Source: Eledone cirrhosa (lineage: Eukaryota). From it: 64,000 nt of DNA. Numbering within the stretch: the stretch's first letter is position 1; each line of letters begins with the position of its first letter. The DNA lies in the NCBI GenBank assembly GCA_964016885.1, contig OZ024754.1, positions 13,392,001 through 13,456,000 of the forward strand, given 5' to 3'. The notes under the pieces are model-generated. The model was given only the letters and a program-made list of their open reading frames with translations, searched no databases and was not told the origin of the DNA. Made by a program: the position numbers and the translations under genes. This document shows, one piece after another, positions 14,420-62,636 of the stretch.

Positions 14420-14424
<5 letters not shown>

Positions 14425-19142: not shown

Positions 19143-20422
19143 GTTATTCCGGGTTGAATCGGAGGTAACCACAGTAAGTAAGGTACTCAATACATAGCAG
19201 AGTATAACAGTTTTAATATAGATGAGATTCTACAGGACTAGAACTGTTTCATTCATTAGAAATCATCAGGAATATGACCATAGTGGCCGTATTTCAGGTT
19301 GAGGAGGGGTGGGGGTAGGGTGGGGAGGAGGTATAGGGGCCAATAGGGGGAGGTCGTTTTTAGCCATCGGGCTTTAACACTGGCTTAAAGTGTTTGAATG
19401 TTGCAAAGTTCTTGTGCATGCAGTTCGGGCAGTGTTCAGAGAGTTTGTTCAGTAGCGGGCCCTTGGCGAATAAAATTTCGTAGCTCTCTGAAATACAAAG
19501 GTCGCAGCCCTTGTGTCCTCCGTCGTAAGAGCGCGCTTTCTGGAGTATTTTCCAATTAAGCGTGAAGGGGGTGGAGTTCCTTTTGAGGTCCCAAACGTAG
19601 GAGGCGAGTGTTGTTTGGTTTGATTTATCCGGTCTTCTGAAGGAGTGGGTATGGGCATACCAGCGGGTCTTAAAGGTGTTGGAGGTCATGCCGATGTAAG
19701 ATTTTTTGCAATCCTCGGTGCCCGAGATGACATCGCATTTGTATACGATGTCGTTTGTGAGGCATTTGTTTTCTAGTGGGCATGTTTCCTTATTTAGGCA
19801 ATTACATAGAGCCCCAGTCCGGGGATTGGTTTCGGAGGTGGTTGGCTTATTTAGTTTAGAGTTGTGGTTGGCTATATTCCTAGCTAGGTTAGGTGTGGTG
19901 GAGTAAGACAGTCTTATAGTGTTCTTATTAAAGATGGTGTAGTACCTATGTTGTATGGGGAAGTGTAATTTCAGTAAAGTGAAGAAAATCCTAGCTATCG
20001 GAGTAGATACCTCTCTATTGAAGGGAGGGTTGTACCAGCTAATCTGCCTATGTCTATTCCTCCTCTGCAATTTTGCGGTGGTTTCTAGGTAAGTTATCTT
20101 ATCTTTAAATCCGCTACGGGCTAGGGCGTCATTGTAGTAGGAGGCAGATGCATTAAAAATATCTTTGTTGGCGGAGAGGCCAGATATTCTAATAGAGACG
20201 CTTTTTACTGCCCGAACTGCATGCACAAGAACTTTGCAACATTCAAACACTTTAAGCCAGTGTTAAAGCCCGATGGCTAAAAACGACCTCCCCCTATTGG
20301 CCCCTATACCTCCTCCCCACCCTACCCCCACCCCTCCTCAACCTGAAATACGGCCACTATGGTCATATTCCTGATGATTTCTAATGAATGAAACAGTTCT
20401 AGTCCTGTAGAATCTCATCTAT
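19139..20422 (-). mobile_element. 5'-truncated Penelope-like retroelement (Neptune-type) with an inverted pLTR copy, inserted in (TA)n
   Basis: GIY-YIG ORF; 20207-20422 is an inverted copy of ~19216-19432; HHRs at 19227-19273 (-) and 20367-20413 (+); TA tracts on both sides. Confidence 0.92.
19360..20206 (-). CDS. PLE polyprotein C-terminal fragment: RT C-terminus, Cys-rich linker and GIY-YIG endonuclease
   Basis: WYNPPFN, CNCLNKETCPLENKC, IVYKC...SYIGMTSNTFKTRWYAH, WKILQKA, CDLCISE, LNKLSEHCPNCMH. The open frame is cut at the inversion junction; residues upstream of it in the ORF track come from the inverted arm. Confidence 0.92.
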
Positions 20423-28976: not shown

Positions 28977-29426
<450 letters not shown>

Positions 29427-29550
29427 AAATACCAGTGATGGTTGGAAAATCACTGACGAAGGACTATTTTTATCATATGTAACCCATGTGCAAACCACGC
29501 AGTATTCTTCATTCTTCTCATGTTTTATATATATATATAGAGAGAGAGAG

Positions 29551-31197
29551 AGATAATTTAATATATCTACTAACATAAGCGCACAGATGTACGCTAATGC
29601 CAGCAAATACACAGGTTATGTCATAGTACCTAGGTGGTTCGATGCAAGAGGATGCAGAACAATAATATAAAAGACGTAAAATAAGAAAATTTTTTAAAAA
29701 AGTTTTTTAAAAAAATGTTAACTTACTTACTTAAATTTTCACTCCAACTAATTAGTTTCTGCAATGGGATAAAAACAGTTACGTAATCCAACTGTCGAGA
29801 ATTCATTGCGTCATCAGGGAGTCTATTCTCAGCGAAGTCTCCAGGCAATGCGCGGACACCGGGGACTCATATAAAAATAATAATAATTCGGTAGATGGAA
29901 CAGCTAGCGGGGCTGAATTCCATGCACTGAAATCCTCGCTGCCTCTGGTCAAATGGCCGATTCTAAAGAATCAATCACGTGACACAGAGGCTAGTCAGTA
30001 GGAATGGGATGGTAAGATGACAGACGCCTACTAACACCCCCCAAAAAATTTAGAAGTGGTTTTGGCAGGTTTGCTCGACAAATCAGTGATTTGGAGATAA
30101 ATATAGATAATTTAATATATCTACTAACATAAGCGCACAGATGTACGCTAATGCCAGCAAATACACAGGTTATGTCATAGTACCTAGGTGGTTCGATGCA
30201 GGAGGATGCAGAACAATAATATAAAAGACGTAAAATAAGAAAATTTTTAAAAAAAGTTTAAAAAAAAAATTTTAACTTACTTACTTAAATTTTCACTCCA
30301 ACTAATTAGTTTCTGCAATGGGATAAAGACAGTTACGTAATCCAACTGTCGGGAGAATCGGCCATTTGACCAGAGGCAGCGAGGATTTCAGTGCATGGAA
30401 TTCAGCCCCCGCTAGCTGTTCCATCTACCGAATTATTATTATTTTTATATGAGTCCCCGGTGTCCGCGCATTGCATGGAGACTTAGCTGAGAATAGACTC
30501 CCTGATGACGCAATGAATTCTCGACAGTTGGATTACGTAAGTGTCTTTATCCCATTGCAGAAACTAATTAGTTGGAGTGAAAATTTAAGTAAGTAAGTTA
30601 AAAAATTTTTTTTAAATTTTTTTTTAAATTTTCTTATTTTACGTCTTTTATATTATTGTTCTGCATCCTCCTGCATCGAACCACCTAGGTACTATGACAT
30701 AACCTGTGTATTTGCTGGCATTAGCGTACATCTGTGCGCTTATGTTAGTAGATATATTAAATTATCTATATTTATCTCCAAATCACTGATTTGTCGAGCA
30801 AACCTGCCAAAACCACTTCTAAATTTTTTGGGGGGTGTTAGTAGGCGTCTGTCATCTTACCATCCCATTCCTACTGACTAGCCTCTGTGTCACGTGATTG
30901 ATTCTTTAGAATCGGCCATTTGACCAGAGGCAGCGAGGATTTCAGTGCATGGAATTCAGCCCCGCTAGCTGTTCCATCTACCGAATTATTATTATTTTTA
31001 CATGAGTCCCCGGTGTCCGCGCATTGCCTGGAGACTTAGCTGAGAATAGACTCCCTGATGACGCAATGAATTCTCGACAGTTGGATTACGTAACTGTCTT
31101 TATCCCATTGCAGAAACTAATTAGTTGGAGTAAAAATTTAAGTAAGTAAGTTAAACATTTTTTTAAAAACTTTTTTTTTAAATGTTCTTATTTTACG

Positions 31198-31205
<8 letters not shown>
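29551..31205. mobile_element. Retrozyme-like / tandem pLTR array: ~553-nt HHR unit, ~1.5 copies on each strand
   Basis: Period 554 (29551 to 30105) on the left, inversion at ~30352, period 553 on the right. HHR actcc-CTGATGA-cgcaatg...cattgca-GAAA-CTAATTAG-TT-ggagt at 29741-29822 (-), 30497-30578 (+) and 31050-31131 (+). No ORF. Confidence 0.85.
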
Positions 31206-31281
<76 letters not shown>

Positions 31282-31815: not shown

Positions 31816-32154
31816 AAGAGGGTGTTAAAGTTTGCTTGAAGCATTGTGAAATATGTAAAATATGTAGTTTAGAAAGCCACAACAATGCAGATGGGAAATC
31901 TCGAGGTAGGAAGTGAGTGAGAAATAGGAGAAAAGTGGAAAATGAGACAAAAAGGAAAACAAAACAAAGGTAGAAGGGTTACCGTAGTGGAGATTTAATC
32001 CCAATATTTTGTGAGCCCGAAATATTGGGATTAAATCTCCCACTACCTTTGTTTTGTTTTCCTTTTTGTCTCATTTTCCACTTTTCTCCTATTTCTCACT
32101 CACTTCCTACCTCGAGATTTCCCATCTGCATTGTTGTGGCTTTCTAAACTACAT

Positions 32155-32239
<85 letters not shown>

Positions 32240-32845
32240 AGATTTGAATATATATAAAAGATGAAATCGAAAATGCAACTGGAATCTTTTATTTTTTTTA
32301 AATATATATTTAATTGGTTCCTTTACCGGTTTCGCAGTTCTTCTGCTTTTCAAAAGTACAGTTGAGATGGAGGGTCTGTGGTTTTTCTCACATGTGAGAA
32401 AAACCACAGAAGAACTGCGAAACCGGTAAAGGAACCAAATAAATATATATATATTTTTAAAAAAAAGACTCCAGCTGCATTTTCGATTTCATCTTTTTTT
32501 CTTTATACTTTCACTCATGTAGGACACCTCGGTTATTTTTTATTTTGTAAAAAAAATCTCACTTTCTAATATATATATATATTTCAATCATATCTCATTT
32601 TGTTTGACCCGTTTAGCTTGTTCGCTTTTTTGGCTATGGTGGTTAATGGCTTCTTAACCATCGTCTCAGCGTGTATGACCATTTTAAATTATGTTTATAG
32701 CTCTGGTATCTTCTTCATATCCATCCAGCGCTTGTCTGCACAATATGGAAGTTGCGTTTCGCTAATTTCTACCCGCCGAAATGCGATTTTCGCTAAATTT
32801 ATATTTATATATATATATATATATATACAAACACATATATATACA

Positions 32846-33369: not shown

Positions 33370-34228
33370 CATTAGTTTAAATGTGCAGCATATCAGTCTC
33401 TGTGTGCGGTACAAGATCGCAATCATCTGCATACAAGAGGTTTCTTATGATTGATGTAAATACTTTTGTTTTGCAACAAAGCGCCTGATGTTAAATATGC
33501 TGTCTGAAGTTCGATACCGGATGTAAACACCATGCTCGCAATTCCTGAATGCAATACAGGAAACCATTGCAAAGTATGTAGCAATCAGGGTCGATCCGCC
33601 TGTTTCACTCCATTTTTTATTGAGATATGCTCCGACATGTTACCTCCGACATTAACCCAAGCCTTCATGTCGTCATGGAAAGACCTAACTAAAGCAAGGA
33701 ACTTATCAGGGCAACAAAGTTTCTTGAGAACCTTCCATAATGCATTTATGTTAACAGTATCGAAAGCTTTTGTCAGATCGACAAAAACCTGATACAGATC
33801 CAAACCTTGTTCCGTGCACTTCTCCTGGAGCTGTCTAGTTGAGATCATATTAGTAGTGCCGCGTCCAGCACGAAAACCAGATTGACTTTCAGGAAAAACA
33901 CAATCTGCAATGTGTGTCAGCAGACGGTCCAAAAGCACCCTACATAAAACTTTCCCTACGACAGAAAGCAATGATATACCTCTGTTGTTCCCACAATCAT
34001 TCCTGTTACCCTTTCCCTTGTACAAGACCACCATTACTGCATCTCTCCAGTCCTCAGATACGGATTCATTAGCCCATATCCCGCCAAACAAAGAGTGAAG
34101 ATGTTGCAGGAGTCGCTCACCACCATATTGTAGGAGCTCTGCATGTATGCCATCCATACCTGGAGACCTTCCACTGTTCAGCTTCGAGATAGCCACTGCA
34201 ACGGCCTTTAGAATGTTCTTAGTGTACA
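33370..34228 (-). mobile_element. RTE/BovB-type LINE reverse transcriptase fragment, frameshifted
   Basis: [67 protein letters not shown]; LYADDCDL in another frame near 33415-33440. Confidence 0.92.
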
Positions 34229-34236
34229 ATACACAC

Positions 34237-34296
<60 letters not shown>

Positions 34297-35296
34297 CTAC
34301 ACACACACATACACCCACACACATACACACACGCACAGATACACACACGCACACACATACACACACATATATACACACACATACACACATGCACACACAC
34401 ACATATATATGCACACACAAACGCAAACACACACACACACATACACAAACACACACACATATATACACATACACACACATATATATATACAAACATATAT
34501 ATATATACACACACATATATATACACACACACACATATATATATATACACACACATATATATATTCACACACACACACATATATATATATACACACACAT
34601 GTACGTTATAAGTGCGTGAATGTTTGTGTGTGTATGTCTGTATGTGTGTGTGTGTCTGTGTGTGTGTGTTTGAGTGTGTGTCTGTGTGTGTGTGTGCGTG
34701 TGGGTGTTTGAGTGTGTGTATGTGTCTGTGTGTGTGTGTCTCTGTGTGTGTGTGTCTGTGTGTGTGTCTGTGTGTGTGTCTGTGTGTGTGAGTGTTTGAG
34801 TGTGTTTGTCGCAGTTCGTCTGTGTCTACGTGTCTATCACGAAAATATTTTTTTCCAATATGTTTTATTAAAACCGTGACGATACATGAGTTTAATGTTT
34901 AATTAAAGATTTTTTCGTATTTCATCGATAATATATGGTTTTTATTTTTGAACAATAAATTTGTAACGTCTGTCAGTATTTTCAGATTTTGCTGATCTTA
35001 TCGCTAGGAAGAGAAGGCTTATTAGTGTCTTAGTAGCGTTTGTTGTTACTTCCAATGGTAGCTAAGAAATATATGATTACTGCTGAACAGCAGGTGACAA
35101 ATCAAACAACAGACGAAACACAGGGAGTACAAAAAATTCAAACAGAAGAATGGGATGTGTCAAACATTGATAATTGTTTCTACTTTTGGCCCAAGGCCAG
35201 CAGTTAACCAGTACATTACTGGTACTTTATTTTATCGACCCCGTAAGGATGAAAGACAAAGTTAACCTCGGCGGAATTTGAACCCAGATCATAAAG

Positions 35297-60549: not shown

Positions 60550-62636
60550 TAAATTTCTTTATTAGCCACAGGGGCACAAAAGAGGGGACAAATATAAATG
60601 GTGAGTTTACATACAGGTGTATGAAAATAAAACTATTAATAAAATAACAAATAACAATTGAAATCCCCAATAGGGGGGGAGGGGGAGGCGTTACACAGGG
60701 GTTGTACACACCCCGAAAAAATGTACGAGCGTGTCGTCGCACCACTTGCTGCGGACCAACCCTCTATAGAATGTCGAAGTGGAGCACCAAGAGCACCAAG
60801 AGTGAGTACTCTTTTCCTCTCTTCCTCTTTTTCCTCAACCTACAGGCTTATATAGAGAGAAGGCCCAACCACTCGGGCCATCTTTGCCACATTCACCCAC
60901 CTTTTATAAAATTTGCTGGGGTACAGCACCTCTCTCTCTATCCTGATTCTTCTTCCAAAATGATATTTGAAAAAACGAATCAGCTCCTCGCCGGAGAGAA
61001 AGGTTTCTGACCTCAGCCCTTTTAACCTCGTCCACCATATAACCTCTTTCACCATAGCCATAACACAGGAAAACCGCCTCGTTTTTGAAGGAGGGGGCAA
61101 TTTGATCATGACAATGGGCTCGGTGGTCAACCGGATTGGACCCACCCGCGACAATAGTCGTTCTACATAGCCCCACAGGTCGGTAACGCCCGGGAAGTGT
61201 ACGAATGCGTGTGCGACGGTTTCCTCGTCGCGCACGCATCTCGGACAGATCTTTTTCGAAGGGTCCTTACCCTGGCACCCGTGTCTGTAGAGATTGTCTC
61301 GAACTGGTAGAGCTCCTCGGTAGCACTGCCAGGCCAGGGACTTTTGGAAGTTGTCCATTGGTCCCGGGCGGAAGTTCCTACCGAACAGACTAGCCAGTTC
61401 GTCCTCCTCTACGCCCAGAGTTTCTCCGAGCGTGTCGTCGCACCACTTGCTGCGGACCAACCCTCTATAGAATGTCGAAGTGGAGTCTCCACTGATCGCC
61501 AGGTCCGTTTGCCAGAGGACTGTGAGCGCCTGAGCACATTCGATGTGCCAGTCGCCCATTTTCCTCTGTCTTTGCTTGACGCAGGACTGCAGCTCAGTCA
61601 GCGAGACGAGTCGTGGGAGGGCTCGCCTCACGAACGGGGCCCACACCGGTTGTCCGGTGAAGAATACGTGGAGGGAGGTGCCGCAGCCCGAGCGCGTGTT
61701 TGCACATCGTCAGCCACGACATCCCCAGTCCTTCGTTTGAAGGGTGTTGGCAGCAGATGGATCTTCTCACCAAAGGAGCCCGTTTCTTCCAAAGGAATTG
61801 GAAGAGCGCGCGCTCCATTTTGGTGAGCGTTTTACCTGGACAAGGCACGACGGTCAAGCGGTAGTAGATGACGGACGCTATAAAAGTGTTCGCCACCTCC
61901 GCTCGACCTTTCAAGGATAGTTTGCACTCGGCCCACTTCTGGGTGAGCGCAAACACCTTGGCCATCACCTCGTTCCAGTTCTTCTCCACCTGGAGGACCG
62001 GACCAAACCAGACCCCGAGCAGCTTTACCGGTCCTTCCGTCCAGCGTCCGACGACGCCATCAGAAGGCATCGGTTTGCCTCTCCACGTTCCGAGTTGCAA
62101 ACCAACGGATTTGTCCCGGTTCAGCTTCGCTCCTGTGAACCTTTCGTATTCCTTCAGTAAGGTGCCGACCTCCCCGATTTGCGAGGTGCTCGACTCCATT
62201 ACTGTCACGTCGGCGTAGGCCGACGCCGCTTTTCGCAGTCCCGGTTCCAAAGGAATGGCCTGCAATAGCTCCAACTTCAGCAGTAGTGGCTCGAGAGTCA
62301 GTACGTACAGAAGGGAGGAGAGAGGGCATCTCTGTCGGATGGATCGCGTGATATGGAACGGCTCCGAGAGGTAGCCGTTCGCCTTGACCCTTGAGCAGAT
62401 GTTGCTGTTGTGCATTGCAGCAATCCTGCCCCTGAACACGGGTCCGAAGCCTGCCGCCTCGAGTACCGCATCCAGGTAACGATGGTCAACCCTATCGAAA
62501 GCCTTAGACTGATCCAAGTTGATCAGGGCCCTACCGAAACCGAGTTTACACCCCTACCCTGTCTATAATGTATCGCATAAGGTGGAGGTTGTCGTGTATG
62601 GACCTGGTCGGATTGCGCATGTCTGCGCTTCTCCCA
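60550..62636 (-). mobile_element. Tx1-clade LINE, 5'-truncated, in (GATA)n
   Basis: DQSKAFDRVDH, SIRQRCPLSSLLY, AYAD-V, GAKLNRDKS, LSLKGRAEVAN, WQCYRGALPV, CPRC...ETVAHAF; 3' end cctgtggctaataaagaaat followed by (ctat)n. Confidence 0.9.

Follow-up and report, generated by a model that had tools for sequence, protein, structure and literature searches.

What kind of element is the inverted array of hammerhead motifs carried by this stretch of DNA, and how was it copied into its present site? The window, that is the whole 64,000-nucleotide stretch analysed (G000:C14:13392001-13456000 of a 3.0-Gb genome), contains two head-to-head arms of ~1.5 units each, which were delimited by self-BLAST and meet at 30354. 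The original prediction had described a tandem ~553-nt hammerhead array on both strands, made of near-identical copies and flanked by microsatellite, and this description was borne out: the arms are 95-98% identical and TA runs are present at both ends. Monomer positions are counted from the first base past the predicted cleavage site (position 1, window 30574; position 553, window 31126), and the locus comprises:

29525-29539: left TA run, remnant of the target
29540-30354, minus strand: minus arm, 815 nt or 1.47 units (monomer 499-553, 1-553 and 1-205), from self-BLAST
30340-30358: head-to-head junction of the two 5'-truncated arms, with 2 extra bases and a possible AGAAT microhomology
30354-31207, plus strand: plus arm, 854 nt or 1.54 units (monomer 335-553, 1-553 and 1-80), from self-BLAST
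30574-31126, plus strand: 553-nt monomer between two cleavage sites, the predicted unit RNA, 38% GC
30654-30775, plus strand: 'tail' between both end sites (monomer 81-202), a short hairpin followed by a long one
31203-31278: right (TA)38 run, target

The plus arm terminates in 3' at a proximal site (80) followed by (TA)n, and the minus arm at a distal site (~202), so that the minus arm includes the 122-nt tail. Because both flanks are TA runs, any target-site duplication is unreadable. The unit had been said to lack an open reading frame, and its longest stop-to-stop frame indeed spans 94 codons without Met; this frame was considered as a gene and rejected, as it has no Pfam match and is absent from subfamilies B and D. 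The surroundings are rich in other insertions. More short inverted-repeat insertions, likely 3' ends of other PLE families, lie within TA runs at 29154-29355 and 31851-32165, and a repeated T-rich 3'-end fragment with CUGACGA is found directly to the left of the locus (29433-29530), a relative of which also adjoins a subfamily-B copy in locus L066. Retroelement ORF fragments were recognised by eye on the minus strand: LINE-like RT at 33585-34898 and 61597-62553, and a PLE-like C-terminal part without Pfam match at 19363-20262.

Two intact hammerheads 553 nt apart had been expected on the plus strand, and one full and one partial motif on the minus strand. These were all found (CUGAUGA at +30502, +31055 and -29817), the fourth motif having no CUGAUGA:

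30497-30578, plus strand: type I hammerhead motif 1, CUGAUGA at 30502-30508, GAAA at 30560-30563, predicted cleavage after 30573
31050-31131, plus strand: type I hammerhead motif 2, CUGAUGA from 31055, predicted cleavage after 31126
29741-29822, minus strand: type I hammerhead motif 3, CUGAUGA at 29817, predicted cleavage between 29746 and 29745
30295-30354, minus strand: partial hammerhead, truncated to its 3' half by the inversion junction, without CUGAUGA

The core reads CUGAUGA-C-[GCAAUG...CAUUGC]-A-GAAA-CUAAUUAG-UU/GGAGU. Each full motif combines a stem I of 5 bp (ACUCC/GGAGU) and a self-complementary stem III, the palindrome CUAAUUAG, both as originally described, with a 6-bp stem II (GCAAUG/CAUUGC) plus an extension and a GUU triplet. 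The core had also been called canonical, which is correct for CUGAUGA and GAAA but not for the C.A mismatch at the base of stem II nor for the triplet, which is GUU; GUU is expected to be a weaker triplet than GUC. Stem II was surveyed in 174 distinct contexts, large-array stretches being excluded and the counts referring to sequences rather than independent events. Each of the six pairs was kept in 169-172 of these contexts and the C.A mismatch below them in 167. At positions 2 and 5 the type of pair differs from one subfamily to another (C-G 104, U-A 47 and A-U 17 at one position, U-A 109 and G-C 62 at the other), and this covariation suggests that the ribozyme is under selection. The monomer folds with z = -6.9 relative to shuffles; when one motif is folded by itself, an alternative pairing has the lowest energy (z -1.3 to -2.7), and Rfam returned no match in the window at gathering thresholds. 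Covariation in stem II and the fold of the monomer together make the motif more than a chance occurrence. Three characters of this unit, namely the additional base that follows A9, the length of stem II and the palindrome in stem III, are given as traits of PLE-type hammerheads in the available part of PMC4209133, which also reports for them dimeric action and weak cleavage. In Xenopus, 8 of 9 predicted retrozyme dimers failed to cleave in vitro, according to the accessible portion of bioRxiv 10.64898/2026.07.22.740005.

The unit belongs to a large family. The hammerhead 22-mer has 9,169 exact matches across the genome, all subfamilies included, and the junction 27-mer of subfamily A has 1,413; a DNA search for the unit returned 1,925 candidates, of which 38 were scored. 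Subfamilies range from 525 to 553 nt (B, 525 nt; D, 526 nt), B and D having ~74% identity with A and 83% between themselves. Copies are dispersed over many contigs, ORF-less, tandem and circularly permuted, the last point being one on which the proposal of a retrozyme had been made to depend. With a type I hammerhead in each tandem unit, no coding capacity, a low GC content (38%) and no LTR architecture, this dispersed unit conforms to the sequence definition of the non-LTR retrozymes, an already known class to which this family likely belongs. Mis-assembly, which had been named as a way in which the prediction could fail, is excluded because thousands of independent copies have an identical architecture. 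Contigs of two public samples also contain the unit and its head-to-tail join, both samples coming from one study of unspecified run type that is possibly the assembly's own source. One array stands apart by its size:

G000:C2:312577955-312666754: 89-kb array of the unit, 153 near-full units (L110, L059, L058, L055-L051, L031, L032)

Its right end is of the normal 202 type, an inversion lies close to the left end, and one internal deletion (335-448) recurs inside duplicated blocks. Such repeated variant blocks point to a later expansion at the DNA level, and the array is apparently a retrozyme insertion turned satellite. Its markers are also present in dispersed loci L011 and L026; an origin of the dispersed copies from this giant array was considered, and unit-specific variants among the dispersed loci gave it no support. 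Other hammerhead tandems were encountered. A second ORF-less family (L119:6530-7420, L248-L259; unit ~459-468 nt, 2,368 candidates) has a long stem II, a U.U mismatch and end sites at 89 and 194, and matches the 553-nt unit over 19 nt only, at the first end site. A third tandem unit, at L128:7700-9000, measures 511 nt; its hammerhead motif has a short stem II, and a TA run lies inside the unit.

The most informative feature of the locus is the combination of inverted arms with two fixed end sites, a Penelope signature that the original prediction had overlooked. Ends were surveyed in 58 C1 loci, taken in order of position from the first 100 listed junction places without using every place; having been picked from a junction listing, each of them crosses at least one junction. 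In these loci 42 arm 3' ends fall at ~80 and 40 at ~202, together 82 of 87, whereas 5' ends are scattered across the unit. Both end sites are TATAT-like and lead into TA tracts. Among 26 inverted junctions, 23 join an 80-end with a 202-end, none joins like with like and 3 are off-site; all 23 intact pairs thus have one arm per site (p ~1e-7 under independent choice). The same two-site rule holds in top-match samples of subfamilies B (17/19) and D (10/12) and of the distant family F (2/3). It is obeyed, too, by an ORF-linked RT + GIY-YIG element at its 3' end, where all 8 pairs (7 distinct) conform and three of them lie in the window. Short inverted 3'-end remnants of this element, following the rule, were noted at 32237-32590 and near 14420 and 15159; they carry a hammerhead-like motif in which UUGAAAA replaces CUGAUGA, presumably a natural U3-A8 variant. 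From the cysteine motif preceding GIY-YIG, the element appears to be of Neptune type (PMC8557442, in the part available); its RT and GIY-YIG domains were recognised by Pfam on its relative L118.

The relation between the two arms of a pair constrains their origin. Neither arm fits within the other in 9 of 24 pairs, this locus included, which argues that an arm is not a fold-back copy of its partner; fold-back self-copying as a general source of inverted arms was accordingly discarded for these 9, and 4 near-symmetric junctions could be of that type. The arms overlap on the monomer in 21 of 24 pairs, so that copying requires either a template longer than one unit or strand displacement. In the accessible parts of the PLE literature, a PLE protein, predicted to be a dimer, makes a cut in each strand of AT-rich DNA and extends both, starting at two internal RNA sites between which the tail lies (PMC11167929); copies that are inverted and 5'-truncated, a tail at only one of the ends and insertion into (TA)n count among the traits of PLEs (PMC8557442, PMC3846280). 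Here an inverted 5'-truncated arm, two internal ends enclosing a tail and an AT-rich target are all found. As two fixed internal ends with inverted arms are the signature of the PLE tail, the 553-nt unit was very probably mobilised by a PLE-type machinery.

PLEs are abundant in this genome, with 10,596 GIY-YIG candidates, of which 150 were scored. The unit was not found as a pLTR in 40 GIY-YIG loci from these 150, nor among 95 distinct free 5' flanks, nor in 20 copies of one further PLE family. Among 54 distinct non-TA 5' flanks no common upstream sequence was seen, save leftover unit sequence and one duplicated region, this duplication being the reason why the flanks of L269 and L270 are alike. 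Relatives of the unit in L107 and L126 are separate insertions in TA runs past the PLE's own 3' end. In L156 (G000:C5:133893657-133896874) a subfamily-D 5' end meets a young PLE ORF, close to the C-terminus of the latter, over a short stretch common to both; this is a one-off join, since 19 other copies of that PLE run into an unrelated 3' UTR. It had been foreseen that the unit might always be the pLTR of an autonomous PLE; the 95 flanks, none of which ties the unit to a PLE as its pLTR, speak against this, and the sampled loci hold no RT + GIY-YIG ORF linked to the repeat of the kind that an autonomous EN+ PLE would have. From the insertion signature, we infer that a PLE would act in trans.

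The template was approached through haplotypes. The set comprised 270 segments from 102 loci (top matches, position-ordered loci and cleavage-site loci), without L244 and L049, which hold two adjacent insertions each; monomer 381-390 and homopolymer columns were masked, CpG columns excluded and segment ends trimmed. Marker discordance was 1.16% within an arm and 1.45% between arms, compared to 31.7% between loci. Lineage variants were fixed in all covering units in 503 of 534 cases (31 not fixed), 63 marker haplotypes were counted among 75 loci, and only 1 cross-locus segment pair had two or more unit-specific variants in common. With L244 and L049 included and less masking and trimming, between-arm discordance rose to 6.2%, and fixed lineage variants numbered 545 out of 646. 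One haplotype across units and arms means that each insertion is the repeat of one monomer from which both arms derive, which implies a monomer bottleneck per insertion. As an observation apart, L041 switches marker haplotype inside a unit, near 403-433, and is a two-haplotype mosaic produced by template switch or conversion. Uniformity of haplotype is predicted alike by a circle, by self-jumps on a linear monomer and by transcripts of a freshly homogeneous array. Copies longer than one unit had been ascribed to reverse transcription of a circular template: the single haplotype agrees with the copying of a monomer, but a circle and linear self-jumps leave indistinguishable DNA. We consider a circular template for the 553-nt unit moderately likely.

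A trace of hammerhead cleavage was sought in 5' ends, using patterns that require foreign bases immediately upstream of the site. The cleavage site gave 17 ends in 1,430 pattern matches (1,413 read-throughs) and the control position 510 gave 3 in 1,728 (1,725 read-throughs), a ~6-fold enrichment over this one control site (Fisher p 4e-4). Reading of 15 of the 17 showed that one is a 7-nt deletion and two are the same locus; with the deletion and the duplicate removed, 15 ends are left (p 1.3e-3). Taken by itself, the enrichment did not reach significance in the position-ordered loci (2/87, p 0.08), and ~99% of the copies that reach the site read through it. Two loci (L168 and L171) consist of exactly monomer 1-80 flanked by TA runs, which is what would be expected from a cleaved linear RNA. 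The accumulation of 5' ends at the cleavage site suggests that hammerhead cleavage likely occurs in vivo, an alternative being that RNA structure could stall the enzyme there. It also suggests that linear RNA is sometimes the template: in L164 the 5' end lies at the cleavage site after two crossings, for which a linear multimer or template jumping is a better fit than a circle.

Taken together, the data are probably best explained by a dispersed ORF-less non-LTR retrozyme whose monomer RNA is circularised and reverse-transcribed round the circle by a PLE in trans. A multi-unit copy would be transcribed and its hammerheads would excise the 553-nt monomer, probably as dimers through the palindromic stem III, as the pile-up of 5' ends suggests. 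By analogy with known retrozymes, the monomer would then be ligated to a circle. The PLE protein would nick both (TA)n strands and prime cDNAs at monomer 80 and ~202 on the same RNA species; the end positions and the shared haplotype are observed, and the priming is deduced from them. Each cDNA would pass the ligated junction over a variable distance (1-4 crossings are seen), and the two 5' ends would be joined head-to-head or a single arm would survive, both outcomes being represented among the loci. More rarely an arm would later be amplified at the DNA level into a satellite, as in the one 89-kb case. We tentatively go further and propose, with some doubt, that the insertions record a double-primed rolling-circle reverse transcription, in which a PLE dimer would begin synthesis on both strands of a cut (TA)n tract from two fixed sites of one circular RNA, with strand displacement. 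If true, the PLE tail, the partial tandem and the inverted arm would all follow from a single mechanism, and there would be direct evidence of retrozyme circles as transposition intermediates.

The same family could have been copied by the same PLE driver from a linear template, either a largely uncleaved multimer transcribed from a homogeneous array or a cleaved monomer into which the reverse transcriptase jumps back exactly end to end, so that a circle would be unnecessary. This explanation, which we judge rather unlikely, accounts for the 5' ends piled up at the cleavage site, some of them after a junction crossing; a homogeneous 89-kb array exists, the L041 mosaic shows that template switching or conversion happens, and, in the available part of the anole PLE study, hammerhead cleavage is dispensable in vitro and uncleaved RNA is the main substrate (PMC11167929). 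However, 63 haplotypes in 75 loci, fixed across units and arms with almost no inherited unit-specific variants, are hard to obtain from a linear multimer, and haplotypes would become mixed at junctions if the jumps were from one monomer to another, which would not happen with self-jumps on the same monomer.

The other explanations differ as to what the unit is. Arms that continue from 553 into 1 and keep circling, for as many as 153 near-full units, are difficult to reconcile with the unit being the pLTR of an autonomous PLE and its copies truncated or tandem pLTR products. The 54 distinct non-TA 5' flanks, with nothing in common save leftover unit and one duplicated region, also speak against this reading, the sole ORF-adjacent case (L156) being a one-off. 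It is very improbable in our opinion, even though the unit has the pLTR anatomy (hammerhead, ~80 nt, two end sites) of the ORF-linked elements found here, its hammerhead has PLE-type traits (PMC4209133, as far as available) and 40 loci were read out of 150 scored among 10,596 GIY-YIG candidates. Finally, ordinary satellite spread at the DNA level might be suspected from the block duplications of the C2 array, and an assembly artefact from the trouble that inverted repeats can give to assemblers. The 3' ends are fixed and the 5' ends variable, polarity goes with the strand of the ribozyme, and copies occur on many contigs and follow the two-site rule, all of which contradicts both readings; contigs of the two public samples (one study, possibly the assembly's source) also contain the unit and its join. 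We give both readings practically no credit.

No account of this family or of a two-site rule in retrozymes was found in the literature, whose supplements may list related families. In the available parts of the publications, animal non-LTR retrozymes (Cervera & de la Pena 2020, PMC7229834; Li, Clavereau & Pollet 2026) resemble the present family in being tandem ORF-less type I hammerhead units with GC <50%, without LTR, in thousands of copies from monomers to long arrays, in genomes where PLEs co-occur. The mismatch at the base of stem II (C.A here) recalls that of the axolotl HHR_Amex2 (U.U). The length of 553 nt had been thought unusual; it lies within the published range of retrozyme consensus lengths, 51-972 bp (bioRxiv 10.64898/2026.07.22.740005). 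Circles have been shown in coral, mussel and axolotl (PMC7229834; bioRxiv 10.64898/2026.07.22.740005), and the northern-verified ones (170-400 nt) are shorter than the RNA predicted for this unit. The same two sources propose mobilisation of retrozymes by PLEs, the mechanism not being demonstrated in the parts available. In Xenopus 24 of 57 retrozyme families matched a known element, nearly all PLEs, whereas no homologous pLTR was found here among the 60 PLE loci read. (TA)n targeting, two fixed internal ends and inverted pairs with one arm at each are not described for animal non-LTR retrozymes in these excerpts. Plant LTR retrozymes differ by a type III hammerhead located in the LTRs and a 4-bp duplication, as opposed to the type I topology and tandem units seen here.

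Likeness to EN+ PLEs comprises several features, judging from the accessible parts of PMC11167929, PMC8557442 and PMC3846280: 5' truncation, a head-to-head inverted copy, a tail borne by a single end, targets that are AT-rich or (TA)n, and a hammerhead upstream of two internal initiation sites. Unlike them, the 553-nt unit has no ORF and its tail is ~122 nt long instead of 30-40; its end sites, which are TATAT-like, correspond to the target, in contrast to initiation in the anole PLE, where there is no target homology. Another parallel is MRC1 of Chlamys (PMC8557442), a non-autonomous PLE dependant with multicopy head-to-tail insertions, although Chlamys elements such as MRC1 have their 3' sequence in common with an autonomous family and N-terminal EN+ PLEs are without canonical hammerheads. 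The movement of animal retrozymes by PLEs via circular RNA has so far rested on co-occurrence, ribozyme type and pLTR similarity. A young and abundant family adds an insertion anatomy that can be counted, namely one arm per site, a single haplotype in each insertion, arms that overlap, and 5' ends located at the cleavage site, and it supplies a small defined RNA with exact predicted start sites for in vitro work with a PLE protein. Results of such work would also bear on the origin of the tandem and inverted structures of the PLEs themselves.
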